A DNA stretch of 63,810 nt, the filler included. It is 14 parts of 14 records of this genome, joined end to end, with 100 filler letters (N's around TTAATTAATTAA, not from the genome) between each part and the next. Parts side by side here need not be neighbours in the genome. Positions count along the whole stretch, not along the records: positions 46,856 to 56,542 come from SRR7504441_103062; 13 more parts are not named here. One strand, 5' to 3'. The stretch's first letter is position 1. The number at the start of each line of letters is the position of its first letter. A model generated the notes under the pieces. The model had not been told where the DNA came from. It saw nothing but the letters and a program-made list of their open reading frames with translations, and searched no databases. This document shows positions 33,968 to 63,721 of this stretch, piece after piece. Made by a program: the position numbers and the translations under genes.

Positions 33968-36900
33968 CTATTCATCGCGAGGAAGCCCAATTGCCTCTTG
34001 TTGTATCCTCATTGTTGGCTCAAGCGAGCCGTCATCTATTTCGAGCCGAGAGAGTGCATCTAGCAATTCATCTCTGTCAGTAGACGCGGCTTCGGCTTGC
34101 GAGCCTTGCTCCTCCAACGGTGGTAACGGGCATCCAATATAGCCGCCATGGTCACGGCAATGTCTGAGCAACGCTCGCCAGTTGGGCTCTGTAGCAAGCA
34201 CTACAGGACTTCCGACCACAATCAGCAGTGCCTGTGCCCTCGTGATGGCTACATTGAACCGCTTCTCATTGCACAGAAAGCCAAGTGAGTGTCTAGCGTC
34301 AGCCTCAAGAAACTCACTGTTGGCCCGCACAGTGCTCAGAATCATAACACGCCGCTCGCCACCCTGGAATTGTTCAGTCGAACCCACCATGATCCTTCTC
34401 GCGTCTTTCCCATCGACCTCCCCTAGGACCTGCAGAGCAAGCCTGATCTTTTGTACTTGCTTCTGATATGGAGCAATGATTCCGATTTGGTCAGGTTGCA
34501 GCGGGTTACGGCGGGTCTCCAAGAGCCTGCAACCAATGAAACTTAGATATTGCACAGCACAGTAGTGTTCAAACCTTTGCACATAGTCTCGGACTATCTC
34601 GACTTCATGGCGGTTGAACCACGATGGCGAATTTCTGTCCCCATCTCACTCAGTAGCTGCCCAGGGCAGATGCTGTCACCCTTCGCGCTCGTCTTTGCCT
34701 TCAATCCCATGGAATATCATCGGAAACCCTGCCGAAGGAAGGTGCTCCCAGTCCACCATTGCGTGAGAGACTAGCTCATCGGCGCAAGCCTGTAGCTCAC
34801 TGTCATAGAACAGTCTATCCGGAAGACTGAGGATGTGATGGTGCGAGCGGTAGTTTCTGATCAATTTTGTGATCAACCGCCGATCATACCCACCAGGCTG
34901 CCGTTGGTAGGGCTCTCTTAGGCTCATGCGTTCCAGCAACGACTTGTCAAGGCCGAATCTGCCGCCTAACGGCGACAGAATAATTGGTCCAAGCTGTCTG
35001 GGATCTCCAGCAAGGACCAACTGCCCGCCCGCGTGTGGATCCAACATATTGGCTACTACAGAGATAGCCTCTGGCTCAGGGGCTTGTCCCGCTTCGTCGA
35101 TTGCCACCATTTGGAAATCCCCAGGATTTAAGCCGAGTTGGAAATACAGCTTTGAAGCTGAAGCTAATGTCGCCACAACGACTGACTTTGACATCAGCTG
35201 CTCGACGGTGGGCAGCATAAAATGGTCGGACTCTTCAGGATCCTCTATGCAGTACTTAATCACATCGGAGTCGACATCATGCTTGCTCCTGGAGTATGCC
35301 ACCACACGCATGAGCGTTGATGGCGACATGTGACAACCAAGGCGTTTACAGATCATGTCAGCTGCTGTGTTCGACGGCGCGCATGCTAAAACTCTGAAAT
35401 TGTGACCAAAGAGGCGGTGAGCCTGCACAATAGCCTCTACAAATGTGAAGGTCTTTCCCGTACCAGGTGGGCCAAAGATGATGTATGGAGCAGGCCGCCC
35501 ACAACCTTCGAGGATACACTTCACTGCTTCGCGTTGCTCAATATTGAGCTGCCGGTTCTGGAATTCAACATTCTCAGGGATTGTGCGCGGAGGCTGACAA
35601 CAAAATCCCGGGGAAGGGAACAGCAGGTGCGTGGTTAGATGGTGTGCTGCATCCTGCAGTGCCTCGTGCTGGATCTGGAACATCGTGCGCGGCAGGCTGA
35701 ACTCAACATCGACTTTGAGCCCGTGCATCCAACTCTGGTGAAATGATGGATGAAAGCGAAGCACAACCCTATCGCGCTCAATCCTGTGTGCGAATCCTAT
35801 GTGCTTCCTCGAAGCGGCTTCTGAGGGGACTCGCACATACACTCGGTCACCACGAAGGACAGACGGTCGATTCTCAGACAACCCAGGTACCTCAAGCGCC
35901 AGCTCACGGGCTGTGACCAGTGCCAGGACAGTGCCATCCATGTCAAACTGCCGAATATCAATCAGCTGTTGTACCTCCTCGCCCCAAAGAAGCTGCTTGA
36001 AATACTGGGCATAATTACCAAACTCAAGCCCTTGTTTCAACTGACGTTCCACTAGTCCGAACTGAGAACGAAACTCTGCTGGAATTGAATGCTTGTCGAC
36101 GCTCCTTGCCCATCGAAGCTTGCTCGTGTTGCCGGCCGGCTGCACGCCTATTGTAACCTCCTCATGAGCAGCACGAGGCTTGCGGGGTGGTCGTTTGGCG
36201 TAAGGCTTGACCGGCTTCAGAACATCATGCAGATCCGAATCGCCTCCAGCAATCTCACAGAATCGTCCAATCGAGAACGCGCTAGTTGCAGCTGGAAATT
36301 GAAACCTGATTTCGAGCAAGCCCCGTGTGATCCCCTGCGTTGCTGTGCATTTGATCATGACGTCTGTCGAATCAGCTGGTCCCATCAAGTACGGCAGCTC
36401 TTCTGTACAAAACGCCGTCAAGTCTCCCATGGCGGATAGCCAATTCAACGCTGTGAGCATCACACGCTGACCAGATCTGTTCTCCACCCTCATTCCTAAC
36501 ACCACTGGCTGGCCTGGCCGGTAGCAGTCGGCTGTGTCAAGAGGTTCGAGCTCAATGCCATTCTTGTCGGCCTCCATGATGGTCCGATTCTGCTTGACCC
36601 TCTCGGAGACCGTTGTGCGCTGAGACTGTGCACTCACCCCAGGCTGGTCGTCGATCGCCCAAACCACTACTGACGCCGAATCCTGACGCTTCTTCTTCCT
36701 GATCTTTTTGGTCTGCTGAAGGTGCCTAAACACACGCGCAAACGACCCACGGTGCGAAGTTGTATCCTTCCATCGATTGTACAGCACCCTGAACACATCA
36801 CGATCCTCGCATTGCCTCCGCAGCTCCGCGTCCACTCGGATCTTTGTATAGAACTCCTCGGCCGCCGCCTGCGCCGGATCCACCTTCGGCGGGGTGGCCA

Positions 36901-41264: not shown

Positions 41265-42119
41265 ATGACGACCGTGGTAGAGCGGGCGGTGTACCGGGCG
41301 CTGCTGCGGGCGGGACGGCGGGTGGAGCGGCGTCCGGCACTGCGGTCGCTGATCCGGCCGCACCATGAGACCGACCGCTGGCCGCTCGGCTCACGGGAGG
41401 CCTCGCTCTGGCAGGCGCTCTGCCAGCCGCACTCGGGCCCGGTCGCCGCGGTGGCCCGTTCCGGGTTCGAGGCGGCGGCGGGGCTGGAGGGGCTGGGGCT
41501 AGAGGCGCTGCGCGAGCTGCAGGACGCGCTGGCGATGGCCGACGCTGTCGGGTTCTGCGAGGCGGCGGCCGGGCGGCTGGACGAGGCGGCCGACCTGGAC
41601 GAGCGGGATGAGGGCCCGGAGCGGCGGGACCCGAGGCGGGCCAAGGCGCTCAAGTACATGGCGATGGCCACGCTGCGACGGACCGAGCAGGAGGAGTATC
41701 TGCAAAAGTCGATCGGCGAATACCCGACTGGGGAGGCCTGGGTGCGGCTGGGGGTGCACTATCGGGAGCAGGGCGAGCCGGGCAGGAGCAAGCGCTGCCT
41801 GGAGCAGGCGATCCGGCTGGACCAGGACTACGGCGACGCGCACAACGAGCTCGGTTGCTTGCTGCTGCTCGAGAACCGGGACGAGGAGGCAGCGGTTAGC
41901 TTTGGCACGGCCAAGGATTGCTCGCGGTTGACAGCTAGGCACACGCCTGCAATGAACCTGGGGGCGCTGTGCCACGCTAAACAGGATTTTAAAGGCGCAC
42001 TGCGCGAATATCTGTCAAGCCTGCACCTGCTGTTGCGGCGTCCAGAGTATCAGAAGGATTTGATCGTGTTGCGGCGAGTGGTACAGGATTTGCTAGACAA
42101 GGTAGGCGAGACCACTTGA
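41265..42119 (+). CDS. TPR-repeat protein with LYR-like N-terminal motif
   Basis: VYRALLRAGRR near the start; EAWVRLGVHY...LEQAIRLDQDYGDAHNELGCLL and MNLGALC TPR pattern. Confidence 0.8.
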   Translation: MTTVVERAVYRALLRAGRRVERRPALRSLIRPHHETDRWPLGSREASLWQALCQPHSGPVAAVARSGFEAAAGLEGLGLEALRELQDALAMADAVGFCEAAAGRLDEAADLDERDEGPERRDPRRAKALKYMAMATLRRTEQEEYLQKSIGEYPTGEAWVRLGVHYREQGEPGRSKRCLEQAIRLDQDYGDAHNELGCLLLLENRDEEAAVSFGTAKDCSRLTARHTPAMNLGALCHAKQDFKGALREYLSSLHLLLRRPEYQKDLIVLRRVVQDLLDKVGETT

Positions 42120-42149
42120 TGACATGCATAATTATCTATACAATGCGTT

Positions 42150-43351
42150 TTAATTGTGCGAGTCTGTGTGGTGTTGCCTCTCGACGTCCCGTCCATGCCA
42201 AGCCAACGGCTTGTCCTCTTTTGCCCAGAAATGGTGGTTCCGCTTGCCCTTCTCGTAATCGTGCAGCTCCAGGCTCGAGGCCCCATCCAGGTCCAGCCCG
42301 ACTGGTATCCGCCGCCGGGCTCCGGTCTCGTCCAAATTGGCCTGCCGCACCAGCTCAGCAGCCCGGGGGCCCGGGGCAGAGCGTACCACCATAAAGTTGC
42401 CACGGTGCGAGTAAACCGTGGCGCCCGGGTCTGCGATCTCGCCCTGCGAACCGCCGCGGACGATCTCGACCCGGACCTCCACGTGGACTGTGTACTTAGT
42501 GACGTCTGCCCCCGGCTCACGGCTGCCAACAGCACGGGTAACTCACAGAGCACTTGCGCGAATAGCTCGATCAAGTCACTGGGGAAGATCGGCTGATAGA
42601 AGAAAAGCCGCCCGACCGAGACCGTGACCATGTGCGGGTTCCGGGTGAAGTTTGAGGCGCAAAAGCTCGCGCTTCTCTCCATCCATAGCAAGAGCTGTCC
42701 ACCAAACACAGAGCCGGAATGATTCACGTCCTGCGGAAAGAAGGTCTTGCGCAGCTGTATGGCCGTATCCCGGATCGGGACCCACTCGCTCTTGCTCCGG
42801 TTGATCTCATCGTCAACCACCTCCCGGGTTAGCAGCCCTGCTGTGTGCTCAGCCCACACCTTGGCCTTCAACTGCCTCCAGTCCCGCGCAAGCCCAGCCC
42901 GTTCGCTCAGGTACGTAGCGTAGCTGGCACACAGCGCCTGGTCCGCCAGTGGGGGTACCCGGGTGGGCCGACCGCCCTCCCCGAGCGCGGCAAAGGTGAG
43001 CATAGCTGCGTGGGTCGGAATCCAGCACCGCCCGAGTACATCTCGCTTCTTCCCGGTGACCTCGACAGTGACCGTCACCCGGCCAGTGGCCACCACCTGG
43101 CTGTCCATGTGCACCAGCTCGCCTGGCACCACCGGCACACGCAGGTCCACTCTGTCCAGCGAGACTGTAGCCATCTGGGCGGCCTGACAGTGCGAGTGCG
43201 CCGCGCGGGCGGCCACAACGTCGACTAGCTTGAGCAGCTCGCCGGCCGCCAGCCGTGACGACTGCCCGGGGTGGCCCATGATCTCGGCCAGCCACGAGGT
43301 CCCCCGGGTCCGGGCCCCGCTGCACATCCCCCGGCGCAGGCCGTGCAGCAT
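42150..43351 (-). CDS. Double hotdog-fold acyl-CoA thioesterase, 2 introns
   Basis: AGELLKLVDVVAA...VSLDRVDLRVPV and PQDVNHSGSVFGGQLLLWME; possible mitochondrial transit peptide MLHGLRRG. Confidence 0.88.
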
Positions 43352-43449
43352 GCCGCTCTCTACCTTCAGTCCTTGATAACGGAAAGAATGCTGCTGTGAA
43401 GACCAGGACCGGGCTAGGCTCGCAGTCGGTGTCGCGTGATTCGGGGCGC

Positions 43450-44887
43450 ATGGCCGAGCCCAGCTGCTGTTCCATCTGGTATCCGAAGCCGACGGCCGGC
43501 CTTCAGGCTGTGGGGCAGCATGGCGGCCCCGCTGGACGCCAGGCTGGGCTGCGGCCACACCTTCTGCCGGGACTGCATCACTAAGTGGAGCCAGAGCGCC
43601 AACGCCTGCCCGCTCTGCAAGGAGCGGTTCAGCGCCATAATCTCCCCGGTCTGCGCCCCCCGCTGTTGCCGGCTCGCTCAGCTGTCCGGGGCAGGGCGGC
43701 ACGCAGACGGCGGTGGAGCACAGGGATTTGCCGGCCGACTACCCACCGGCCCTCGAACGGCCGTGCGCCCGGTGCGGCTCGGACCGGGACGAGCATTTGC
43801 TTTTGATCTGCGACGGGTGCGAGGGTATGTTCCACACGTACTGCCTCCAGCCGCCGCTGCAGCAAGTCCCACCTGGCCGCTGGTTCTGCCGGCACTGCGC
43901 CCGGCCGCGCGACAGCGCCCGTCGGCCGAGGCTTGCTCGCCCCGCGGCCTCCCCTGAACCCGAGGCCGACGGGAGCCAGGCGCTGCGGCTGCGGCTGGAA
44001 CTCGCACGCCGGCAGGCGCCGCGGGTGTCAGAGTCCAGACAGCGGCTGCAGGCTGAGATACAACGGCAGCGCAGGAGGCCCGCGGGTGGGCGGGCAGCAG
44101 CCCCGGCCAGCCGCGGGCCGGATCGGGAGTGGCGGGCCACAGATAACCGGTCGGTGCTGCCGCGTGCGCACCGGCAGGAGCAGCGCTCTCGCCAGGCGGA
44201 GCACGACAGGGAGTGGCAGCTGCTAGATAAGGCACAGCCCCCCCAGGCTGCGGCTGACCGGCTGGGCAGCTCGCCACAAAGCGGCAGAAGCAGCAGCCGC
44301 GTTGCACTGGCCCGCCGCGCAGAGCCCGCCCCGGGCCGGCGGGAGCTCGCCCCAGGGGAATGTCAGGCCTGCCCGCTGCCAGCCCGTGCGAGCCGGCCCG
44401 TCGGTTGATGGCGGCAGCTCAGCCGGCGACGGTGGTCGGCGGGAGTGTGCTCGAGATGACGGGGCGGGCGGCACCACCTGCTGAGTGGCGCGAGCTGCTT
44501 GGGTTGGTCGACCATCAGTATGGTTCTATGCTTAGGGACGGTCGGGCCGTGGCTGGGCTTGCGGAGGCCGTTGCAAGTCTGGCGGTCATGGAGCCGGATG
44601 CGTTCATGCAGGCGGTCAAGCAGGCCGCAGTTAGCGAGCTCAAGGGCTATAAGCTGCATAAGGCGAGGGCGTGCGGGCACGGGGCATGAGCTGGGGGACA
44701 GGAAGCGTTCAGTGCACTGTACAAGCAAGCAGTCAAGGGTCTGTGGAGCATGCGTGGGTCGATGCCCAGAGAGATGGTGGATCAGGCGGTCAGTGAGACG
44801 ATCCGCAAAGTGGCCAAGATCCAAGGGGTTGCATTGCACAGCCGAAGTGCAGCCAAACGGCATGCCAGTGCGATGCACCCAAGCTAG
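43450..44887 (+). CDS. RING + PHD finger protein (PHRF1/SCAF11-like architecture), several introns
   Basis: Spliced CSIC...CGHTFCRDCITKWSQSANACPLCK RING; CARC...LLICDGCEGMFHTYCLQPPLQQVPPGRWFCRHC PHD; helical C-terminus after a GC-AG intron near 44662-44701. Confidence 0.85.
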
Positions 44888-46855: not shown

Positions 46856-49800
46856 AGTGCCAGGCATCACGGGGGTCCAGCCCACGCGGTGCTGCGCGAT
46901 GTAGGTGCAGGAGGCGGTGGGCCAGGAGCGCTCCGAAACAGCTCTGTGCCTGGGTGTACGAGGAGACGTACCTACATTCGACCTTTGCGGATCAATTGGC
47001 CACCATTTGAATGCTCTCAACTGATACTTCGGTGTCACTTTCTGCCGGACAGAAAGTTTCGCTAGAGTTAGCGCCCTCGATGAGAGAATCGCGTGGGCAT
47101 TTGTTCCAGACATGCCAAAAGAGCTGACCCCAGCACAAAGCTTGATACCAGACTCAGAGGACCTCGGCCTGGACTCTTTCGTCACAGCACTAGAGGGAAA
47201 CACCACCTGAAAGCTGTCCAAGTCTAGCTTTGAGCTAACCACACAGAAGTGCAAATTCGGAGACACGCTTCGGTAACTAACCGAAAAGAGCGCTTTAAGA
47301 ACTCCCAAAATTCCAGCTGCACCCTCACTGTGACCAGCGCATGTCTTCAGTGCTCCAAGAACTAGCTGATCGTCACCAAAGGTCTTGTGTCGAGGGAGGG
47401 CTTTTAAGGCACCTGCCTCTATGGGATCACCCAGAGAGGTACCAGTTCCGTGCGCCTCGATGCTGATCCGAGTCGTATTTTCCAAATCTCGCCAGACATC
47501 AGTGAGAAGTGACAATTGCGCCAAGCCATTGGGGGCTGTCAGGGAAGCGCTTGCCCCATCCTGATTTACCCGTGTTGCACATACACTGAGGGCTGCGGCC
47601 AGGCTCGACACACCAAGGAAAGCAACAGCGACGGCTTCACCTCGTACATACCCATTAGCTGAAATGTCGAATGTCTTGCACCTGCCATCAATCGCCAATG
47701 CATGCATGCTGCACATAGCCTGGAAAGCTTCTGGACGCAGAAGGACGTTGGTGCTTGCTACAACCGCACTTGAGCAGCGGGCGAAGTTCAGACTTTGGAC
47801 AGCCGCATCTAGTGCCACGAGTGAAGAGGAACAAGCCGTCTCTACAGTCAAAGAAGGTCCTTGCAGTCCAAACACGTACGAAAGGCGCCCGGAAACAAAG
47901 GGACTACCAACACCGCTTGCCGAAAAAGCCGATATTGGGCGTGGAATAAGCAGCCATTCTACCGCAGTCAGCATGCCAATGAAAACGCCAATGTTACTAC
48001 CCTGAAGAGATGATCGTGACATGTTGCCTGCACTGAAAACGTCATGAGTACTCTGCAACAGCAAGCGCTGGTGTGGATCAAGGCCAGCTGCTTCAGTTGG
48101 CGAGACATCAAACAGTGCCTGATCGAATTGCTCTACCTTGTCCAAAAAGTACCCTTGCTTAACATAAATATCTGATGGGTCGAGTCCAAAGTCGCATCTT
48201 GGTTCTGGGAAGTTCTGTGCGCATTCGCTGCCGTTTAGCAGCAATGGACCCAGCTCTCTTCCAGAATCAAATGAAGAAGGCACGGGCATGATGCTCGCAG
48301 TGCTGATAACGAGTACGCTGCAGTTTGCGGAGCAAGCTGTCGCAGGTGGAGTCGATTGTCTTGTTTTGCAAGCGTGTCTGTCAAATGAACAGACAAATGC
48401 AGCTATGTCATCGATGCAAGGGTAGTTGAACACAAGAGTTGGTGGCATCTTAATCGCAAATGTAGTTGACAGAGACTTACTCAGGTGCACAGCTTGTATG
48501 GAGGTCATGCCTGCCGCAAAAAGACGGGACTTTGATCCAATTTGTGGATGTTGCAGCAGACGTTTTACTTCCTGTGTCACAGCTGTACGCACATGACCTC
48601 GATCCCCGAGCAGAGGAAGGCACATCTGCCTCTCTCTGTCACCGTTCAGAGCCGGAGCGCTTCTCGGCCTCTGGTTACCGGCTTGGCTGAGGATGAGGTG
48701 AACATTTGGTGCTCCTCCAGCCGCATGACCATGCACGGATCCAATCTGGGAGTTTGGCGGTCCTACCAGCTGCTGCCCTCTGGTTGGCACTGTGAGTAAG
48801 CCTGGGGCTCCCTCGAGTAGGTCGATGGGGGTGGTATGATGCACGACTGGTGTGGTGCAACCATGCTCAAGCTGAAGAACTGCTTTGATCAGCGCAATGA
48901 GACCAATTGTGAACGAGGCATGTCCTAAATTTCCATTGAAACCCCCAATGACAAGTGGTGAAGAACGGTCGTGACAGAGTGTTGCCAACATTGCCGACAG
49001 TTCTATGTAGTCACCAACAGGGTCCCCATTCGCGACCATTTCGACGAAATCGATGTCACCTGGAGCCATTCCGCAGACCTCAAGAGCATTGTGGACTGCA
49101 CACTCTTCCGCAGACTGGTCTGGAAAATTAGTAGGCATGTCTTTGTCGTTGTAAGAGATGGCAGACCCTTCGATTAGTGCACGAAAAGCCAACGAAGAAA
49201 CACCTTGCATGTGCAAGACTACGGCAGCACAGCCCTCGGCAAAAACTAGCCCGTCTGCATTTACGTCGAAGGCACGAACCGTCCCTGACTTTGATACTAA
49301 ACCGGAGTGGTCTTCCCACCAACAGCTTTCAAATAACGAGGCTCCGGCAACAAGGGCCCATTGACAGCTTTGGCTCGTAATCTCCTTACATGCTGTGTGC
49401 AGAGCAAGATGTGACGCCGTCGTACCACAGTTAAAGTGCTTCCATACCTTGCAACCAGGTAAGTCCAGCTTTTTAGCTAGTTCCAGAGCTAGTTGATCTC
49501 CGGTATGGTGACTGGCTGTAAATACACCACTGTCTCCAGGAAAGTTGTAAGCTTCACTCGAAGCCAGCACCTTCTTTGCAACATTGAGCATGCACTTGGT
49601 ATGGGTACCGTTCCTGTCAACGTGTTCTTCAAGGTATCCGCCACAGCCGGCTGTGGGCATAGCTTGGGACAAACAGTCTGGAGGCTGAGTTGCGATGTAG
49701 CTATCTTTATTGACCAGTGCTTGCCATAGCTCGTCGGGTGAATGTATGCCTCCTGGAAGATGACAGGCCATGGAAACAACGCCGATCGACCCGCATCTCA

Positions 49801-52800
49801 GCCTCATCATTTCCGCTGACTTGGCATCTACGTTCAAGTCTGTGGATGTTGTACTTAGAGCCTCTGCTTGCGTAGCTCCATAGGATCCTCCACAGAGCTC
49901 ATCTAACTTGGAAGTCAGTGTATGAATGGTAGGGTGGTTAAATATAATCGTTTGCGGCAGCTTTGGTCCGATCTTCTTTTGTAGTATATAACGGAGCCGA
50001 ACTGCACCCAGTGAGCTCAACCCAGATACCATTAAGTCGTTGTCGACACCAACAGGGGACCCGATCAGTGTGGCGAGCGTTTTCATCACCAGCGTAGCTA
50101 AGCTTTGCGTGGCCCCTAGCTGGCTCTGCTCAGCTTCGGTATTTGCCTGACACAGGTGAGCCAGTCTCGATCTGTCTATCTTGCCTGCCGAGTTGAGCGG
50201 CCATTGTGCCAGCATGGTGACCACTGTTGGTACCATGTACGCAGGTAGCATAGACTTACACTCCTCAGTAATAACATGCCCACAGTTCCCATCTGAGAGT
50301 ACGTAAGCAGCCAGCTGATCAGTGCCTTTACGCATGACCAGTGCATCCTTGACTCCGCTAACTCGGTTGATAACTGCCTCGATTTCACGTACCTCTACTC
50401 TCTGACCATTAAGTTTGAACTGGTAATCTAATCGGCCGAGAAATTCGACAGAACCACTGGCTAACCAACGAGCACGGTCTCCGGTTCTGTATAAACGTTG
50501 CCTTCCGTTGTAGACAAAATTTTCGAGGGTGAGATCCATGCGCCCGATGTACCCACGTGATAGCTTAGGGCCTCCCAATAGGAGTTGCGCAGGAACTCCA
50601 AGAGGGACAGGCTGATTGCGTACATTCAACACGTAGGATACAGAGCCTGGCATCGGACTACCTATTGGTACGATTGACCAGTCCTGCACACCCTGCCTTC
50701 TTGGCAGAGTGCATTTGAACATGTGCGTGTCAACTGTGGATTCCGCAGGCCCATATCGATTAAACACTTCCACATGCGGGTGGTCTATTCCAATCAGCTC
50801 AACGAGCGCAGATGGCGGCGTCTCTCCACTAAGATAAAGCATTCGTAGTGTGAGCGGCAGGGCTTGCCCTCCAACCACTTCCAAGTAGACAGCCAGAGGG
50901 CTAGGCACAAGATGTGTGAAAGTCACCGACTCCGCCTCCATGAGTTCCTGAAGATACGATGGTTGTACCAAAGAAGTTGGTTTTGCTATCACCAGAACAG
51001 CACCAGAAGTTAGAGTGAACCAGACCAATCCAACAGAGGGATCAAAGGTGAACGAAATGCTGTACAAGACAGAGTCTTCGTGCAAAAGATCGAGCTGTGC
51101 GTTAGTAGATGCCACCAAGCAGACCAGAGAACCATGTTCCACCATCACGCCCTGCAGAAACAACTCAAATTACAGTGTGGCCAGACACAAAGAGGGACGT
51201 AGATCTACTATTCGCAAGTACAATCACTATCCAGGGCAAAGGTTGTACATGTGCTGTGTTACCTTGGGCACCCCGGTGGACCCAGACGTAAAGAGCACAT
51301 ATGCCAAGCCGTCGGGAGCTCCGGGCAAAACTCTACTTAAGTCTACATCTTTGCGCTTAGGAATCCGGCCTACAGCTGTATCTTCTACAGTCATCCATGG
51401 GATAGAGAGCCTTTCCGTCCACATCGACACTCGTGCAGAAAACCTGCGCTGCGTGGCAATACTGAAACACTGACATTGTACCAGCAAATAAAGAATGCGC
51501 CCATCCGGCAGCTTTGGGTCAAGTGGCATATATGCGGCTCCAGCTCGCATGACGCCGACCATTCCACAGACCTCTTCGGTGGACTTCTCGATACACAAAG
51601 CTACTATCCCGTCTCGAGGAATCACACCATCCTGCATGCAACCCTCCAAGTCGCGTGCAACGTATGAACTTCGAGTGTCAAGGTCGCAATAGCTCACTCT
51701 TTCGCCTTCAAACCCTAACGCAACTGCATTACAGGTTACAGAGGAGTCCATCATGGTGAGTACTGTGGACGACGTGGTGCTTGGTGCTGCTGTGGCATTC
51801 CATCGGTGGACTACTTCGAGTTCTAGCGAGGGTTGGCAGAGCAGAGAGGTCAGCCCAGAAGTGCTAGTTCCAACCGTCTCCATCAGCTGTGAAAAGTATT
51901 GAAACATTCTCGACCCAGAGATACCTCCAAACACAGCGCTGTCCATGTCCCAACCAAATTGCAATGTTCCATTCCAGTCGTTGAACTGAAAATCCAATGC
52001 CACGTGTGTTGTGGCACTCTGCACGTGAACGATTCGCGATCTAGTGCTTCCTAGTAAGGTGCGGTCGTGAGCCGCGGCAGATCCAAGCATGGGTGCGACC
52101 ACCACAGAGAAATGCAATTTTGAATCTTTGTGGAATTGTCGTAGCTGATTGATCACAGCAAGGCCTCCAATTTGATTATGAGCATTGTTGGTTACCCTGC
52201 GCTTAGCAAGCTGTCCAACTCGCTGCTGTATGGTTATGCCATCTGAACCATAGGATTCCAGGAGTAAGATTTCGTGGAACTCCCCAACCACTTCAGCCAT
52301 CTCTGGCGGCCTCTTGCTGCCTACCACATTGAGCGTGAAATCCTGGTCCTCCACATGCGCACGCAAGGCCTCACAGAATAATGCAATTATCAGGTCGCAG
52401 GACAATACACCACACCGCTTAGCAAGCAACTGTATTGTCTGCCATTGCTCAGGACTCACAGAGCTGTCATGTCGGGTTACGCCAGAATCAGCTCCAGTGA
52501 TCCAGCACTTTGGAAATGATGGTGGTGGTGGAATGACCTCGAGCTTGCCCTTCCAATATGCTTCTGATGAGTACCAGTCGGCACTGTGCTGTCGAGAGAC
52601 GCTGTCGTTGCAAAAAGTGCGGAACGTCGACAATACAGGGGGAAGAGACGCTGTGCCGTGAGTATAGAGGGCTGCAAGGTCGCGCGCAAGAACCTCTAGG
52701 CTGTTTCCTGTGGTGACACAATCGATGTCTATATGAAATCTCACAGTTCCACAAGGCATTCGTGTGGCCTGGACTGACCATCCTGGAAATTGTTCCACGT

Positions 52801-55800
52801 CGTATGGATACGGTAGGCTGTGAGCATTCAAACGACGAAAGTGGAGATAATCTGCACACTGGCGAGCATCTTCAAACGAAGTGATCGCAATAGTGTAGCG
52901 AGGGACCTCTGTCAACACTTCTTGGGTTCCGTCGGCACACATGCGAGCCCTGAGCATATCGTGACGCTTCACAAGACAGTCTAAGGCATCTTCAGCCAGC
53001 TTGATGTCTACGATCCCGTCTGCCTCGACTTCTATGTACATATGGGATGCCACTGTCCCTGTTCTACCAACGAGATACCCCAGCTGCAATGGAGTGAGTG
53101 GAAATTTGGGATTCTCCCACTGCATCTCTACTCCTGCTGGATCCAGGCCCTTAACAACATGTTCTGGGTGAATAGCTGTGCCCTTACCTTCACACCTGCC
53201 ACTCTGAATTTCGATACTGTCTCTCGACGGATCCCTTGAGGACTTATTATGGTCTCCTTGGGGCAAATGTGCTTGACTGAGCACAAATGCATCATCTCGG
53301 TCTAAAGCTCCAAGGTCAGCTGTTGGATGGGCGGCAAGCAGCTCAATGAGGTGCTGAAAATTAGATGCCATTTGGAATGCTTGACCTCGTGTGAACAGCT
53401 CACTGCAGTACACTAGTTGACCAACCAACCCCCCCGCATCAGTTTCGGACACGAGTAACTGGAGGTCAGTCTCGACGCCAATGTATTTATATATGTTCGA
53501 TACAACCGCCTGCACCTCGTTGGTCGTAGCGGTCACATATGGAGTTTGCATGTCGAGCGGGAGTAACTGGACAACTGTTTGGCATAACGGAGCTGCACTT
53601 CGATCGTGAGGAACACCCCTGACACAACTGACAGCTTTGACAACAGATGGCCAGGATGCATGGCGGTGCTCCAGAGCTTGCAATAATACGTGCTCAATGT
53701 GATTGATCACTTCACCCAGCAACATGTTACCACGTGAACGTATTCGAAGCGCTACCATATTGCTTAAGTTTCCTACAGTGGCTCGGAACCAGGAATTGTG
53801 AATTCGCTGATCCACCGGTACAAGAATCATGACTTCTTCTTGTTCCGTGTAATTTCGTAGCAACAGATACCATATTGCATACAGGCAAGATGACGCCCCA
53901 CCTTTGGCTTCCATGCCATGATGTTTCAAGCTTGTCCACGCTTCAGCACAGACAAACAAAGGACAGCTGCTACCAGCGCGACTGAATTGTTCTGGTCGTC
54001 TAGGGCGCCAGGGGAAAGAGAGCAGGCTCTGAGAATACTTGAGCTGCTCCTTCCAGAAAGATAAGGATCGCTCTGCCAGATACCCCTGTGCATTTTGCCA
54101 GTTGGTATAGTCAAGCTGTTGTAGCAGTGGCGGATCCCACTGGCACCTCTTTCCTGCGGCATGGACTTCGAGCGCCAGATTCAACTCACGCCGTACCATT
54201 GAAGCCGAGGCCCCATCGAATGCAACATGATGAACCACTAGAAGCAAATGGGGTGGCGTCGATGTTACTACGGTTGCACGCAGGGGAGGTTTTCCGGACA
54301 GAAGATCAAAAGAGCGGCTAATTACTTCGGAAGCCTGCTGTGGAGAGCATTCCGTCAGCTCCAAGTTCCATGATTTTAAAACCTGTTGAATGACACCCTG
54401 TGTTCCAAGTGTATATGCAGTCCGCAGGACGTCGTGGCGCTCGACGATAAATTGCACTGACCTACGTATCGAAGTCATTGTATGACGATGACCCAGGTTA
54501 TGAATCCACACCGGTATATTAAAAGCGCTCGCATCAGGTTCTGAAGCTTGCAACGTGAAGAACTGCTCTTGCTCGTCTGAGAGGGGTCCTATGCCTTCTG
54601 TGTTTCGTATCCTTTCGAATTCTTCCACCGGTGCAACAGAAGATTCCAACAACGTAAGGCCATAGCTGTGAGCATCCGACATGATTGGATGCTCTGTCAG
54701 TGCCGCATTGACATCGGGCAAATTGATGATGTGGGCAGCAAGCTGCCCCAAGGTTGGGTAATCGAACACAAGAAGTGCTGAAAGGTGCATCTTTAACGCC
54801 TTTGAGACCGCTTGAACAAACCTTGCTGCCATTGCAGAGACGAGGCCCATGTGTGCCAGAGAATCATCCAATTCTACAAACCGACCGGTTTGTGCCTTTA
54901 CTTGTAAAATCAACAGAGCGTGGAGTGCTGTTATTGCGTTTTTGGGTGAGTACACCTTCAACAGCTTGCTCAAGGTAGCTCTACGCTCATCAGTTTCGCT
55001 GACAGAACAAGTCGCATGCTCCAACGACTGGCTTGAACGCATCTCCTTCTGAATTGTATCAGGTCGCTTGCTTCTGCAATCTGGAGTGCGTCGGCTAAGT
55101 CCCTCCGCCTTAAGCTGCATGTGGTTGCGTGGTGTACATTTTGCAAAACCCTGCTGTCGAAGAACCAAGTGCAAATTATACCCACTAATGGAGGTACCAC
55201 TGATGCTGCCCCAGCTCTTTGCATCATTAGATGGTAGGTGCATTATTTCAGACGTGGGCAGGCACAGGCAGGCCGTGTGTTCTATTACAGAAGCTGACTT
55301 GGTCACATTCACATGCCCAGGTACTGAGCAGTGCTGCATGAGCAGACAAGTGGTGACTAGTCCTGTGAACCCGGAAGCATACTCACTATGTCCAAAGCAC
55401 GACTTGTGGTTGGCTAAGGCTAGTTGGCCTGGCTTCTCTTCGTGTGCAAAGGCCTGGACGATGGCGTGCAGCTCCGGAATATCGCAGGGTGGGTTACCCA
55501 TGCCATGTACATGGGTCACGGCCACCAGATTAGGTTTTATGCCGGCAAGTGACAGCGCAACTGAGGCAGCATAAGCCATTGCGTTGGGGTCAGCAAAGCC
55601 AAGCGGGAACTTTGTATCAGTTCTGGTGCTTGCTGAACCCACGAGACTGATGTTCTTAGATGCTCCTATCATAGCTCCTCCTTGCAGCACCACAGCTCCT
55701 GCTGCTTCTCCAGCGATCATACCATCGGCAAGCGCCTGCCAACCCCCGTAAGTCACCGGCCGGAATGTTAACACTTACATCAAGAGGTTGCATTGATCCA

Positions 55801-56542
55801 GATCTGGATGAAAACGGCGAATGGACTCGTGGCCTGAGCAGTAATTGGACTCCACCCAAGACTGCTGCTTGGCACTGACCAGTCCTGATTCGCTCGTGCC
55901 CTTGATGTAATGCCAGATATCCACTGGAGCAGGCTGCATCTATATTGCCTAGCTCACAGTCGATGCCCAGCTGCTTAGCCAGCACACGTGGCACATAAAA
56001 TGATCCCGCAGGTGGCATTGCAAATAGTCTCACATCAACAGCTGTGAATAGACAGAGGTGGCGTTTCCTGCACGCGTCCAGGGTCCAACCTGAATTTGCA
56101 ATCGCCTTTACGGTCACATCGATTAGAACTTGCATATGCGGGTCGAACGCAGATTTGCTGTCCTGACTCGGGCTTGCGAAGGCAAAGTTAGGCAGAAATG
56201 CTCCCACTGTAATCCCTTCAGAACTCACAGCCTTGTGTCTGTAGTGTTGCGGGATAGCGTAGGTGATGCAACAGCGTTGTGTTGATAACGTACGCCACAA
56301 ATGATGAAGACCAGTGCCTTCTCCTGGGACCATACAGCCCACCCCGGCGATAACACTCAAACTTTCAGTTGGACAGTGCCTTGTTATAGAGTCCACTGCA
56401 GCATCTAAGCTGCTTCCACCTTGCATACCTCCTGTCTCCTGAGCCAATGATTTGAGAAAGGCTGTCAGCTGAGAAACTGTCGGGTGATCAAACAAGAGTA
56501 GTGACGACAGCGGCACTTGGAGGGCTTGCGATAGTTGACTCC
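46856..56542 (-). CDS. Hybrid modular PKS-NRPS, internal fragment: (ACP)-KS-ACP-C-Cy-A-PCP-KS0-ACP-KS-(DH); no AT domain; 2 introns
   Basis: KS DAACSSG/HGMG/GHSE; ACP GLVS; C domain HHVAFDG (about 54230); Cy FPLTPLQLGYLVGR (about 53100); A domain YVLFTSGSTGVPK, NRYGPAE, YRTGD, NSAGKIDR; PCP GLSSL; KS ETACSSSL/EAHGTGT/GHSEGAAG; DH HRVGWTPVMP. Introns 55736-55778 and 51152-51262 join the three ORFs. Confidence 0.93.
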
Positions 56543-56838
56543 NNNNNNNNNNNNNNNNNNNNNNNNNNNNNNNNNNNNNNNNNNNNTTAATTAATTAANN
56601 NNNNNNNNNNNNNNNNNNNNNNNNNNNNNNNNNNNNNNNNNNATTAAACTAATGATTTTTCGCAAAAAAAAACCACAAGCACTGGTCAGTTAACCAAGGA
56701 CATGGAAACCAACGGTTACACAACAGATTTCATGCCGTGAACGTGAGGTAAAAACAAGTCACACCAGTTAAACGCAAATGAAACTGGGGCAACCAGCCGC
56801 CTTCTCCCGCAGGTGGGCCCGTACTGCCCGTCACCAGC

Positions 56839-57990
56839 ATGCTGCTCCACCTGCTGCTGCTCTCCAGCCTCCCCCTGGCCGCCCCGGTGGCCTGCCCGCT
56901 CCCACCGACGCTCTGCCTCGAGAACGCCACCCGGTCCGACTGGGGGCCGGTGCCGCTGGCCACCGGGCTGGCCTACCTGCGACAACTGCTGCAGCAGGCA
57001 GTGGTGGTGGAGCATAGCACTATCCCCCTGTACCTGACCGCTCTCTATTCGATTCACAATGGCTCGTCCCCAGCCGCCGCGGCCATACGAGGGGTGGTGA
57101 TCGAAGAGATGCTTCACATGACTACCGTGTGCAACTTGCTGAACGCGGTGGGCGGTTCACCTGCAATCGATACGCCCGAGTTCATACCGCGCTACCCTGT
57201 GGAGATCCCGCTGATCAAGCAAGTTGCCGGGATCAGCAGATTTGACCGCCAGTCAGTCCGGCAGTTTGTGCAGATAGAACTGCCGCCAACCGGGCACAAG
57301 TCGATACTGGGCTGGTATGAATACTGCGCAATGCTGCTCAAAGCGCTTTGTGTGGAGCACGGCGAGGCGCGCGTCTTCACTGGCAACTCTGCTCTCCAAG
57401 TGAGCATCGCTGCTCATGTGAGCTCTTCGAGTGAGCTCGCTCAGCCTATCCTTGGGCTGGATCAGGCGGTGGCAGCCTTGAATGGCGTGGCCGAGCAAGG
57501 AGGCGGCTGCCCGGTCCCAGGCGACAAGCAAGACGCCCAGCCTGATGCTGGGCCGCTAGGAGGTGGTCTGGCACATTTCGCTAGGTTCACTGAGATTCTC
57601 GAAGAGAGAGAGTTTGCACCCGGCGACACTGCCAGCACCGGCCCCACAGGTCGGGCCCGGCCGACCGATTGGGAGCATGTCTATCGGTTCTCTCCAAACC
57701 CGCGCCTGGGAGCGTTGGAGCCTGGCACGATCGAGCATAGGCGGAGCCTCCTTTTTGCCTCCAATTACACCCAACTGCTGGTGAAGCTGCACACGGCCTT
57801 CAACGGTGCGCCAGAGACAATCATGCAGACAGTGGGTCAAATGTACGCACTGCGGGGTCTGGCGGTGCAACTGATGCAAACTCCAGACCCTCGGCGACCT
57901 GGTTGGGGCCTCGGACCACCTTGGGAGTATGTGGCTCATGCGTCTGAGTTTGCAAGGCGATCCGCTCGGCGATTAGATGGGTCGCGATAG
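56839..57990 (+). CDS. Secreted ferritin-like protein of the VioB/iminophenyl-pyruvate dimer synthase C-terminal type
   Basis: LQQAVVVEHSTIPLYLTALYSI...GVVIEEMLHMTTVCNLLNAVGGSP, F.QIE.P, EQGGG, AHFARF; N-terminal signal peptide; intronless. Confidence 0.85.
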   Translation: MLLHLLLLSSLPLAAPVACPLPPTLCLENATRSDWGPVPLATGLAYLRQLLQQAVVVEHSTIPLYLTALYSIHNGSSPAAAAIRGVVIEEMLHMTTVCNLLNAVGGSPAIDTPEFIPRYPVEIPLIKQVAGISRFDRQSVRQFVQIELPPTGHKSILGWYEYCAMLLKALCVEHGEARVFTGNSALQVSIAAHVSSSSELAQPILGLDQAVAALNGVAEQGGGCPVPGDKQDAQPDAGPLGGGLAHFARFTEILEEREFAPGDTASTGPTGRARPTDWEHVYRFSPNPRLGALEPGTIEHRRSLLFASNYTQLLVKLHTAFNGAPETIMQTVGQMYALRGLAVQLMQTPDPRRPGWGLGPPWEYVAHASEFARRSARRLDGSR

Positions 57991-60584: not shown

Positions 60585-62192
60585 TCAAAGCTTGCTCCGC
60601 CCGGTGGTTTGGATCACCTTGGCTTTGAGCTCTTTCTTCCTGAGCTTGCCCGCCTCGGACCTCGGGAACTCCTCCGCGTGGAAGCTCACTTCCTTCTCCC
60701 TCGGAAGCTGAAACTTGCCGATCTTCCCATCACACCATCTGAGCAGCCCCGCGGCATCGAGCGTCTGTCCGCTGGCCAGTTTGACCGCGGCGTGCACTTT
60801 CTCGCCGTACTCGGGGTCCGGCAGGCCAAACACGGCAACTGCAGCCGTTTGTGAGTGGGCGAGTCATGAGTGGGGACACCGTCTTCAATCGCCGGGTGCT
60901 GGTGAAGGAGCTCCTCGACTTGGGCGGGGTATATGTTGACGCCTCCGGACACCACCTGCCGCCCGATCAGAGGCAGCCCACCGGCCGGGTACCATGTCGA
61001 TCTTTCTGTCAGATATATACAAGAAGCCGTCTTGGTCAAAGTAGCCTACATCTCCGACTGAAAAAAAGTCGCCATGCATGGCCTCCTTGGTCTTCTGGCC
61101 AAGCTTATGGTACCCATCGATATTAAACCCGCGTGCAAAGATCTCGCCGGCCACCCCCGGCTCGGTCACCCGCTCCCGGTTGTCGTCGAGAAGAATTACC
61201 TCGGTGCCATAGGTAGGCTTGCCACACGACAGCGGCTTTTCGATTATGAACTCGGGTGGCATCACAGTGACAGCTCCGAGCTCAGACGCGCCGTATATCT
61301 CGTGTAGCACAGGCCCAAACAGCCTGGTGATCCCCTTCTTAACCGCCGTGGGGCAGGCCGCTCCGCCGGACATGATTGTCCTCACGCTGGCCAGAGAGCG
61401 CCCTGAGAGCGTCTGGCCGGGGAGTTGCAGGATTCGTTTTAGTAGAATGGGCGGCATATAAAACCCGTTGACTTGATGCCGCTCGATCGCGTCGAGCGCC
61501 GCGGCCGCGTCGAATTTGGGCATCAGCACAAACGTGGTGGCCAGATTCTGGCCGATCGAATAGAAGGCCATTGGCATTGCATGATAGAGCGGGGCGGCCA
61601 CCAGCTGAACCGGCTGGGGCATCATCCGGCCGAGCCCCCACTCCTTGACCGTGGCCATCGCCCGGGCTGGGTCGGGTTTGCCTCCCTTGCGGACGGCGCC
61701 CTTGGGTTTGCCGGTGGTGCCACCAGTGTAGCCCACCATGCCGCCTGGCCTGTTGTGCGGGGGCGGGACAGACCCTGGGGCCGCCTCGGCCACCAGCTCG
61801 GCTAGACTCAGGTAGCCCGGCAGCCCGCCGTCCATGCAGACCCAGTGCTTGACCTTTGAGCACCGGGCCCGCATCCCGGCCACCGCCGGCCCGAACTCGT
61901 ACCCGAAGAAGACCACCTCGGCGTCGCAGTCGTCAATAATGTAGGCCACCTCCGGGACCGCCAGGTGCCAGTTGACTGGCGAGAACCGCAGCCCGAGCGC
62001 GGCGCACACCTGGTGGGCCAGTAGCCACTCGGGACAGTTCTTGCCGTAGATCGCCCCAGCCACCCCCGACGGCGACAGCCGGCCTGAGAGCGCCCAGGCA
62101 GCCCGGTCGCGCTGGGCGCGCATCTCACCGTAGGTCAGCCGGTTGCTCCCATCGGCCGTCACCGCAAACACCCTGTCAGCCGGCGCTTGCAT
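60585..62192 (-). CDS. AMP-binding acyl-CoA synthetase with peroxisomal PTS1, 2 introns
   Basis: [56 protein letters not shown]; ends in SKL*. Confidence 0.92.
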
Positions 62193-62294
62193 CGAGGTCC
62201 GCCGTCGAGTGCCCGATCGTCCACGGTCGTGTCCGTTATTTTTATGGCTAGATCTACGCTGTATGGGACAACAATGACGCTGGAGCGGATTACA

Positions 62295-63721
62295 ATGACG
62301 CTTTGGGTCGTCCTATGGCTCGCGGCAGCCCCTTGCGCCGCCCGGAGCGGGACGCTGGGTCGGCTGCCTCCTCTGGGTGACACCGAGCTAGGCCGACGCT
62401 CAGGGCGGGCGCAGGTTGGAATTCTTGGTGCAGCGGCGGGAGTCGGTGCGGGCAGCAGGCTCGCCCGATGCATCTAGACAAGTACCACGACGTCTGCCAC
62501 GAGGACGAGGTCAAGGCCGTGGCCGACGAGATCATCCGGAACGGGATGCAGCGGGCCGGGTATACATACATTAACCTGGACGACTGCTGGATCGACCCGC
62601 ACCGCACGGCGGCCGGTGAGCTTCAGCCGGACCGTTTCCGGTTCCCTTCCGGATTCGGCGCCCTGGCCGACTGGCTCCACGCGCGCGGCTTTCTTTTCGG
62701 CGTGTACACCTCGGGCGGGCGGACCACGTGCGCTAATGGCGGGAAAGACCCCTGGGACTGGCACCGGTGGGGAAGGTCGATTCCGGGTTCTTACCCGGAT
62801 AATTATCAGACGGACGCCAATACGCTGGCGGGTTGGGGGGTGGACTATCTGAAGATGGACTGGTGCGACACCAAGGGGCTCGATCCACAGAACATCACGA
62901 TGACGATGGCGCACGCGCTCAATGCCACAGGCAGGCAAATCTGGTTCAACTTTCATTGCTTCCACCCGGGTGCTAACAACACCCCCGACACCGGCTCGAT
63001 CCCAGCCTGGTGCCCGGCGGCCGGCAACAGCTACCGCATCGGCACGGACCACAACGACTATTGGGAGGGCTCTTATGGCACCGGGGCGGTGATCGAGGTG
63101 CTCAAGCGCGGGGCAAGCTGGAACGCCACTGGCCCCAACTCGGCCCTGACAGCGTTCAACGATCCGGATTTCTTGATGACGGGCGGAGCCGGGTGCGACA
63201 ATGCCAACGGAATGGAGCATTGCCCGGGCCAGACCAGCACTGAGTACAGGACTGAGTTCTCACTCTGGTCAATGGCGGCTGCCCCGCTGATTGTGGCGAC
63301 TGACCCTCGGAACCTGTCCTCCTCGATGCTTTCGATCCTGCTCAATTCGGACCTGATCGCGCTGGACCAGGACCCGCTCGGGGTGCCCGGCGGGCTGGTG
63401 CAGGAAAGCTCAGGCGACCCGGAGCTGCAGGTTTGGGCCCGGCCGCTGCACGACGGCAGCATCGCAGTGGCGCTGTACAACGCTAAGAACTCGTCCGCTT
63501 CCATTCGGGCCGATTTCTCTCAACTGCCAGCACCGCAGGTGATGCTGTCCGAAGGGGATGCTCCGTTGGCTGGTGAGGCGTGGGGGAATGGCACGCGTGT
63601 GGCCGTGTATGATATGTGGCAGCACAAGCAAACTGGCGAGAGCGTGGGGCACTTTGAATCAGAGGTCGAGGCCCATGGCACTGTGGTGGTCAAGCTCAGC
63701 GAGAAATCTGGCGCCAATTGA
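62295..63721 (+). CDS. Secreted alpha-galactosidase (GH27), 1 intron
   Basis: Signal peptide; spliced PPLGWNSW, YINLDDCW, WGVDYLKMDWC, FNDPDFL, EFSLWSMAAAPL, melibiase C-terminal domain. Alternative in-frame ATG at 62274. Confidence 0.94.

Follow-up and report, generated by a model that had tools for sequence, protein, structure and literature searches.

A single contig in the DNA stretch studied here carries an internal piece, no shorter than 3177 aa, of what we read as a very large gene in the nuclear genome of a marine eukaryote, encoding a modular polyketide synthase (PKS) that lacks integrated acyltransferase (AT) domains and has one nonribosomal peptide synthetase (NRPS) module embedded in it. 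We assign this reading a probability of roughly 0.78. The stretch (hereafter the window) is 63,810 bases long and is a join of 14 contigs (3.0-9.7 kb, GC 51-67%) rather than a single locus. Between its contigs stand spacers in which TTAATTAATTAA is flanked on either side by 44 N, and since they were joined artificially, adjacency across a spacer carries no meaning. The PKS-NRPS coordinates, 46856-56542, correspond to exactly one of these contigs (9687 bp).

The gene lies on the minus strand, which corrects the original prediction, and is open at both contig ends. Once two interruptions are removed it reads through 3177 codons without a stop, in three open pieces: exon A (56540..55779, 254 codons), exon B (55735..51263, 1491 codons) and exon C (51151..46856, 1432 codons). 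Besides these pieces the contig has no other notable content. No internal DNA repeats were found within it, and Rfam and tRNA scans of the whole window gave no matches. The earlier claim of a gene of at least 9.7 kb, open at both ends, is thereby borne out, the coordinates being those of one whole contig.

The first interruption (intron 1; 55778..55736) is 43 nt long, runs GTAAGT...GGCAG, has 56% GC and shifts the frame, and the second (intron 2; 51262..51152) is 111 nt long, runs GTAACA...TGCAG, has 44% GC and is in phase with in-frame stops. Intron 2 sits inside the adenylation A3 motif, with exon B ending in ...FTSGSTGVPK and exon C starting with GVMVEH. The Pfam AMP-binding profile is matched from position 8 to 178 in exon B and from 179 to 383 in exon C, so that no position is gained or lost at the junction. 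Likewise, the spliced first ketosynthase (KS1) has no indel at the intron 1 junction when aligned to a KS hidden Markov model (HMM) that was built for this analysis from 60 database KS domains. Small contigs from four metagenome runs (X1 to X4; three studies; aquatic, marine or seawater) match the PKS contig, many at 99% identity or more, and the best-matching run may be the window's own source sample. Intron 1 occurs unspliced in one of these contigs (X3 record 23; 55666-55821, 0 differences, with 70 and 43 flanking letters), and all of intron 2 occurs in another (X2 record 12; 51110-51271, 0 differences), which extends 9 letters past its 5' end. Genomic DNA from at least two data sets therefore contains the interruptions, and they are not an error of a single assembly. 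We infer that they are GT-AG spliceosomal introns, whose predicted splicing restores the KS and A-domain profiles exactly; the two introns originally proposed, of 43 and 111 nt, are upheld by their GT...AG ends and by this restoration.

The reading frame is also supported by variation in the population. Variants were examined at 40 of 43 positions, all exonic, and 24 of them were synonymous and 16 were not. For this coding sequence, the synonymous expectation is 24% for all changes and 34% for transitions only, and the excess is significant against the latter value (binomial p = 7e-4). Purifying selection therefore acts on the predicted frame. At the contig end, the last 79 nt (46856-46934) are covered at a summed depth raised several-fold in three of the four runs, and several different sequences continue from position 46934. 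Summed depth in the position bin 46856-47178 was 18.6-31.6 in X1, X2 and X4, with other bins at most ~6.3, and was 1.34 in X3. This suggests that the segment 46856-46934 recurs in other modules or in paralogues and that it broke the assembly. The fragment had been taken as part of a much larger megasynthase, and the repeated segment supports, but does not prove, a larger multi-module gene; it would predict several modules, nearly identical to one another, that start with a DH. A different join was seen in one contig only (X1 record 6, 367 nt), which links position 54339 back to 54003 (337 back) in the condensation domain and could reflect either a loop in the assembly or a variant with a local duplication.

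Domains were mapped by Pfam searches of the exons and of 18 overlapping 300-aa tiles, together with reading of the translations, and PDB sequence searches were run for the condensation (C), heterocyclization (Cy), KS1, KS2 and KS3 domains. Matches in NCBIfam were confined to generic PKS/NRPS models, and each of them fell far short of its cut-off. The resulting order is ACP0 tail-KS1-ACP1-C-Cy-A-PCP-KS2-ACP2-KS3-KAsynt_C_assoc fragment, where ACP and PCP are acyl and peptidyl carrier proteins and A is an adenylation domain. The contig starts inside ACP0, of which the C-terminal end is present (56454..56537, minus strand as for all domains below; PP-binding 40-67/67 at exon A residues 2-29, E=0.0055, below the Pfam cut-off). 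Serine is kept in all three complete carrier domains: ACP1 (54728..54928; exon B residues 270-336; PP-binding E=2e-7; Ser in GLVS), the PCP (49913..50086; exon C residues 356-413; E=4.5e-6; Ser in GLSSL) and ACP2 (48392..48580; exon C residues 858-920; E=7e-10; Ser in GMTSI). The hybrid PKS-NRPS order proposed originally was thus reproduced by Pfam and PDB, with the exception of its terminal dehydratase (DH), which rests on one short motif. After KS3 come a linker and a possible DH start, HRVGWTPVMPGT (46856..47071), with a fragment of PF16197 (KAsynt_C_assoc) below cut-off. The contig end, ...IAQHRVGWTPVMPGT, resembles a DH start over the 18 residues available, and when HRVGWTPVMPGT is set against HxxxGxxxxP the Gly comes one position early. 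No Pfam PS-DH match was obtained at the contig end, and a phmmer search with the 75-aa tail against 120 PKSs gave a best E of 0.5.

An integrated AT was sought in four ways. At E<=1, none of the 18 tiles was matched by Acyl_transf_1 (PF00698) or by a ketoreductase (KR) family. A phmmer query made from the AT segment of a cis-AT match found 108 of 120 control PKSs and did not find the spliced protein. A GHSxG motif scan of the 3177 aa returned a sole GxSxG, which is KS3's own GHSEG, and tblastn of an AT against the whole window, including the other 13 contigs, gave only noise at E>=0.55. The gaps between KS1 and ACP1 (~125 aa) and between KS2 and ACP2 (~85 aa) are too short for an AT, and the 130 aa that remain between KS3 and the contig end do not contain the start of one. 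Both KS1 and KS2 lead on to a carrier without an intervening AT, and the architecture is that of a trans-AT (AT-less) synthase. The original prediction that no AT follows any KS within the contig and that the stretch has no KR therefore stands, and the cryptic AT between domains that would have overturned it was looked for by these searches and not found.

The three KSs differ in how well they are preserved. KS1 spans the first exon junction. Its N-terminal part (55779..56354; exon A residues 63-254) matches ketoacyl-synt 5-216/252 at E=5e-21 and holds the Cys in DAACSSG, and its C-terminal part (55088..55735; exon B residues 1-216) matches Ketoacyl-synt_C at exon B residues 32-144 and holds HGMGN and GHSE, with the KS HMM envelope reaching spliced residue 470. 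The Cys, His and His are all kept in a very divergent domain (27% best identity, 103 bits to the KS HMM). KS3 (47072..48280; exon C residues 958-1360) is canonical (TACSSS, EAHGTGT, AGHSE), matches both ketoacyl-synt and Ketoacyl-synt_C as well as PDB entries, and scores 335 bits to the KS HMM. Best identities among billions of proteins were 27-28% for KS1 and KS2 and 42% for KS3. The Cys-His-His triad is complete in KS1 and KS3 only and not in KS2 (48644..49786; exon C residues 456-836), a degenerate domain in which Pfam covers profile positions 4-38 and 150-247 only and which lacks ~50 residues of the N-terminal subdomain. In two alignments, to MAS and to the KS HMM, the His of HGTGT is replaced by Val (VEMVANGD opposite VEAHGTGT). 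Against the KS HMM, with a 2-residue insertion, a Cys of KS2 falls in the active-site column, and against MAS that column holds Thr, with the Cys 2 positions off. Lacking the HGTGT His, KS2 should be unable to decarboxylate an extender unit; it looks non-elongating and would be at most a pass-through KS (KS0) with its own ACP.

KS1 and KS2 share 26% identity over 211 aa. KS3 obtained per-domain scores of 246 bits to CurL and 229 bits to EryAIII, both cis-AT systems, against 177-204 bits to single-KS chains of trans-AT systems; its 355-bit match to PDB 7zma adds up two KS domains. Because KS3 lies nearer to cis-AT KSs than to single trans-AT KSs, the KSs, as judged by these scores, are not members of the bacterial trans-AT clade. 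In a KS tree built in quick mode without named trans-AT references, KS3 stood on a long branch next to a metagenome protein that lacks an AT, and KS1 and KS2 were paired (98) on very long branches, a pairing that may be long-branch attraction. The Bathycoccus (Mamiellophyceae) protein P0001 was considered as kin and rejected, as its 919 bits are six summed KS domains of 129-180 bits each, compared with 200-268 bits for bacterial KSs.

The embedded NRPS module begins with an ordinary C domain (53306..54595; exon B residues 381-810; Condensation 3-443/456). Its HHVAFDG is intact, it keeps 41 of the 56 columns conserved at 90% or more in 80 database C domains, and the matches inspected among 27 in the PDB were ordinary C domains (e.g. 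the fuscachelin PCP-C, Txo1/2 and TycC). The A domain is split by intron 2 into an N-terminal part (51263..51736; exon B residues 1334-1491; AMP-binding 8-178/384, ending in the A3 motif FTSGSTGVPK) and a C-terminal part (50180..51151; exon C residues 1-324; AMP-binding 179-383/384 and AMP-binding_C). The translation contains HHVAFDG, FTSGSTGVPKG, NRYGPAE, YRTGD, GKIDR and GLSSL, which we take to be the named core motifs of C, A and PCP domains, with Pfam and PDB support. With the C-domain HHxxxDG, the A core motifs and the PCP Ser all in place, the unit is, by its motifs, a C-A-PCP elongation module.

Between the C and A domains lies a second condensation-family domain (51860..53104; exon B residues 878-1292), which starts with FPLTPLQLGYLVGR. 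By overall sequence it is assigned to the Cy subfamily: all 8 of its PDB matches at E<=1e-5 are Cy domains (Irp2/HMWP2, FmoA3, BmdB, EpoB and PchE; best E=2.5e-31). Its catalytic motifs are degenerate. It keeps 42 of the 69 columns conserved at 90% or more in 37 database Cy domains; the 37 retain 59-69 of them (median 68). The second Asp of DxxxxD is replaced by Thr, with a one-residue deletion; VFTS reads VVAP, so that the dyad Thr is Ala; NxTxF reads NVVGS, so that the gating Phe is Ser; and GDFT reads GEFH. The LDxQ motif, with the dyad Asp and helper Gln, is retained. By spacing, T1830 and D1862/Q1864 of HMWP2-Cy2 would map to the VFTS and LDxQ columns. According to the available part of PMC9547227, mutating the Asp-Thr dyad, the helper Gln or the gating Phe severely affects cyclodehydration, and the DxxxxD aspartates of Cy domains are structural. 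Cyclodehydration by this domain is probably impaired, because the dyad Thr, the gating Phe and the second DxxxxD Asp are gone.

The intact C domain stands directly upstream of the Cy domain with no carrier between them. Direct C-Cy fusion seems to be uncommon: among the 150 best matches there were 16 Cy-containing proteins, none with a convincing direct fusion (P0394 has C, a 121-aa gap and then Cy-A-KS, and the 'Cy' matches of P0383 score only 12 bits). In VibF, labour is divided between two tandem condensation-type domains. The whole C-Cy-A portion is distant from known proteins. Its best identity was 26% among length-matched proteins, and against representatives of 15 billion proteins the best 150 were all giant multi-module NRPSs at 25-31% identity, a ranking in which short high-identity fragments could fall below 150. 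A scan of JGI metagenome contigs with the Cy-A protein gave 23 pattern matches with no relative among them, and in the ESM Atlas C-Cy matched bacterial condensation clusters.

The A-domain specificity code was read by hand at ten positions as DPGHYSRVDK, using GrsA numbering, and the columns were then checked on an alignment. In 36 Cy-linked A domains the same columns read nearly always as the DLYNLSLIWK type (12 exactly), which indicates that the code columns are right. DPGHYSRVDK agrees with Cys-type codes at 2-4 positions and best, at 6 of 10, with DVWH[F/I/M]SLVDK, presumably a serine code. As predicted from this code, the A domain most likely activates Ser. An amino-acid-containing polyketide had been proposed as the product; an amino acid is likely, and a heterocycle is doubtful, as KS2 and the Cy domain look impaired.

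On these features a route through the fragment can be proposed. A free-standing AT encoded elsewhere would load malonyl onto the ACPs. KS1 would extend the incoming chain onto ACP1 and leave a beta-keto group, with no reduction in cis. The C domain, through HHVAFDG, would then join the acyl chain to the amino acid, likely Ser, activated by the A domain and bound to the PCP. The Cy-type domain would probably not cyclodehydrate efficiently and may have a structural or altered role, and an N-acyl-seryl unit would be more likely than an oxazoline. KS2-ACP2 would pass the chain on without extension or be bypassed, and KS3 would resume elongation into modules beyond the contig.

The host was considered from the other contigs of the bin, which encode Vps8 (one 1303-codon open reading frame, ORF), a MOV10-like helicase, Sec1, a PHD finger protein, a Na/H exchanger and DHX15/Prp43. 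The DHX15 gene, on contig 1 (497-2857, minus strand), shares 91% identity across its last 352 residues with the EukProt entry EP00656_Telonema_subtile_P017700 and 91-92% with two further records, compared with 75-78% for plants and other named eukaryotes; the ESM Atlas returned 'Eukaryota' only. By this identity the bin looks telonemid. DHX15 has at least 6 introns of 36-43 nt with 76-90% GC, all ending in CAG, and three of their mapped 5' ends are GC and not GT. The MOV10-like gene has a GT-AG intron of 45 nt and 60% GC (34635-34679, minus strand); with it removed, ...DEREGNSPSWFN... is recovered and the AAA_12 profile resumes at position 82 after position 79. PKS intron 1 (43 nt, ...GGCAG) falls within this class of 36-45 nt, CAG-ending introns and intron 2 (111 nt) falls outside it. 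Among the papers listed by a literature search on Telonema introns, none seemed by its title to concern nuclear introns.

Composition complicates the assignment. GC content at third codon positions (GC3) is 0.49 in the PKS and 0.63-0.83 in DHX15, Vps8, the MOV10-like gene and others, and the correlation of relative synonymous codon usage (RSCU) between the PKS and these genes is ~0 for DHX15, 0.1-0.2 for Vps8 and -0.13 to 0.27 overall. Two ORFs without Pfam matches, at 3473-5380 (minus strand, 636 aa) and 9419-12154 (plus strand, 912 aa), resemble the PKS in RSCU (r 0.66 and 0.72) and have GC3 values of 0.56 and 0.49. Their contigs also carry GC3-rich genes; the second ORF adjoins an FG-GAP ORF, and GC within the two contigs varies between 0.47 and 0.68. 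Since PKS-like ORFs share contigs with high-GC3 genes, the bin is heterogeneous within contigs. On this bin-level evidence, the odds that the PKS contig belongs to a telonemid-like heterotrophic flagellate are roughly even. A microalgal host is less favoured, as the other contigs point to such a flagellate as the more likely one.

Three further ORFs on other contigs were recorded in passing. One is a stand-alone AMP-binding (acyl/aryl-activating) ORF of 475 aa (60888-62312, minus strand) and another has two stretches of the 4HBT thioesterase fold (42053-43738, minus strand); both could have an accessory role in lipid or polyketide metabolism, and nothing links either to the PKS. The third, on the contig next in the join, is a 402-aa ORF (56782-57987, plus strand) with a Ferritin-like match (PF12902, E=2e-41).

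Several observations weigh against the reading of the fragment as part of a functional AT-less PKS-NRPS of the host to which the bin points. Splicing is inferred from DNA sequence. Taken per domain, the scores of KS3 are higher to cis-AT KSs than to those of bacterial trans-AT systems, none of the three KSs has a supported placement in the KS tree, where all lie on long branches, and the active-site Cys of KS2 is placed differently by two alignments. The Ser call leans on agreement with the reference codes at six of ten positions. Two of the ten domains, KS2 and Cy, are degenerate, which would fit decay too. Finally, the codon usage of the PKS and the GC of its introns (44-56%, against 76-90% in DHX15) differ from those of the bin, and the contig may come from another organism.

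That last point is the basis of the most serious rival, in which the gene is eukaryotic but belongs to another protist (a haptophyte, chlorophyte, dinoflagellate or other alga) and was mis-binned with a telonemid-like genome. We regard this as a real possibility that falls short of even odds. It would account for the deviant GC3 and codon usage, for the low intron GC and for the 111-nt length of intron 2, and algal AT-less multimodular PKSs are documented in the available parts of PMC4661987 and bioRxiv 10.1101/2024.01.29.577497. However, PKS-like codon usage recurs in the two ORFs whose contigs also bear high-GC3 genes, and the MOV10-like intron (45 nt, 60% GC) is close to PKS intron 1 (43 nt, 56%). 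The seeming affinity to Bathycoccus is a summed multi-KS score that falls below the bacterial range when taken per domain. In addition, many type I PKS genes have been counted in Telonemia single-cell genomes, as far as the accessible portion of that 2026 preprint goes (bioRxiv 10.64898/2026.04.17.719054).

The degenerate domains raise the alternative that the fragment is a decaying or partly inactive relic, eukaryotic and intron-bearing, that makes no product. The loss of the HGTGT His and of part of the N-terminal subdomain in KS2, the absence from the Cy domain of three residues tied to cyclodehydration together with its 42 of 69 conserved columns, and the extremely long branches of KS1 and KS2 would all be expected of such a relic. 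We nonetheless consider it improbable: 3177 codons are free of stops and frameshifts outside the two introns, synonymous changes are enriched among population variants (24/40), and the serines of ACP1, PCP and ACP2 are kept along with the catalytic motifs of KS1, KS3, C and A. Moreover, KS0 domains are normal in working trans-AT lines, eukaryotic ones included, according to the available text of bioRxiv 10.1101/2024.01.29.577497. Far less probable still is a bacterial contig, present by contamination or mis-binning, with the interruptions being insertions or assembly errors in a pseudogene. Although all of the domain families are typical of bacteria and the nearest database proteins by score are bacterial, both interruptions have the form GT...CAG and their removal restores conserved motifs exactly, the same interrupted DNA is found in metagenome contigs of other runs, and the exon frame is under purifying selection. 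Identity to bacterial proteins is also low (KS3 no more than 42%, the NRPS part 25-31%). The predicted introns and the lack of a close bacterial relative support the original view that the gene is eukaryotic rather than bacterial, and we retain the reading of an AT-less PKS with an embedded NRPS module in a marine eukaryote.

Under that reading, the fragment belongs to a hybrid line that bears introns, is maintained by selection and resides in a marine eukaryote encountered in several metagenome studies, and it already combines a non-elongating KS with a tandem pair of condensation-type domains, features of working trans-AT lines. To our knowledge, the diversity of giant AT-less PKS genes in uncultured protists has barely been charted, and we know of almost no genomic description of Telonemia, a group of deep-branching heterotrophic marine flagellates. 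A more specific and tentative proposal, which we consider rather unlikely as a whole, is that of a giant telonemid AT-less PKS-NRPS in which a Cy domain, of a kind confined to bacteria in the literature searched, is fused behind a canonical C domain and has lost residues for cyclodehydration. If true, a heterocyclization domain would have been taken over by a eukaryote for a new, possibly structural or gate-keeping role, and complex secondary metabolism would have been glimpsed in Telonemia for the first time. A correct telonemid assignment would mean that complex PKS-NRPS chemistry reaches a heterotrophic orphan lineage. Giant AT-less PKSs of this general kind can matter, as the PKZILLAs make major algal toxins.

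In the literature searched, there was no report of a protist or microalgal Cy domain among searches on Cy or heterocyclization NRPSs in protists, dinoflagellates and microalgae, and no protist or eukaryotic Cy domain is reported in the available parts of PMC6361889, PMC9547227 and PMC6722697 (on saxitoxin). No description of a telonemid megasynthase at the level of architecture was found there either. AT-less, multimodular, intron-bearing PKSs as such are established in chlorophytes, haptophytes and dinoflagellates, going by the accessible portions of PMC4661987, PMC6361889 and bioRxiv 10.1101/2024.01.29.577497. Those of protists have been proposed to derive from cis-AT ancestors by displacement of the AT (Shelest et al. 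2015, PMC4661987), and the nearness of KS3 to cis-AT KSs agrees with that proposal as it appears in the part of the paper available.

Like the algal AT-less PKSs described in the sections available from PMC4661987, the present gene would be a giant nuclear gene with KS-ACP modules, a presumed free-standing AT and no methyltransferase domains. The same sections report NRPSs in 7 of 32 algal species and a few single C domains inside PKSs, whereas here a full C-Cy-A-PCP module is embedded and the host is probably not an alga. KS identity to Bathycoccus P0001, the sole chlorophyte protein retrieved, is at best 36-38%. PKZILLA-1 and -2 of Prymnesium parvum share with the fragment a trans-AT architecture and GT-AG introns, and they contain minimal KS0-ACP pass-through units between elongating modules, which KS2-ACP2 resembles; the arrangement has also been described for bacterial trans-AT lines (all from the available part of bioRxiv 10.1101/2024.01.29.577497). 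In that part the PKZILLAs are given an ANL-ligase loading domain only, with no C, Cy or PCP reported, and their product is known. By comparison with them, the KS0-like KS2 is more degenerate, with a truncated N-terminal subdomain, and 9.7 kb are seen here.

As in the bacterial Cy-A-PCP units of EpoB, HMWP2/Irp2, BmdB and PchE, the Cy-type domain has an N-terminal FPLTPLQxxYxxGR and LDxQ and stands before an A-PCP that feeds a KS. Unlike those modules, it lacks the second DxxxxD Asp, the dyad Thr and the gating Phe, and it is preceded by a canonical C domain without an intervening carrier; its A domain lacks the Cys code found, exactly or as a close variant, in nearly all of the 36 Cy-linked A domains. 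Among protists, the hybrid NRPS-PKS genes of Symbiodiniaceae are similar in being intron-bearing genes that combine NRPS and PKS domains, and their genomes carry many stand-alone trans-AT genes (PMC6361889, in the part available). Their C domains are of the LCL type, with no Cy type reported in that part. Against these systems, AT-less protist megasynthases are a kind already known, and what is new here is the embedded C-Cy(degenerate)-A-PCP unit together with the strongly reduced KS2.

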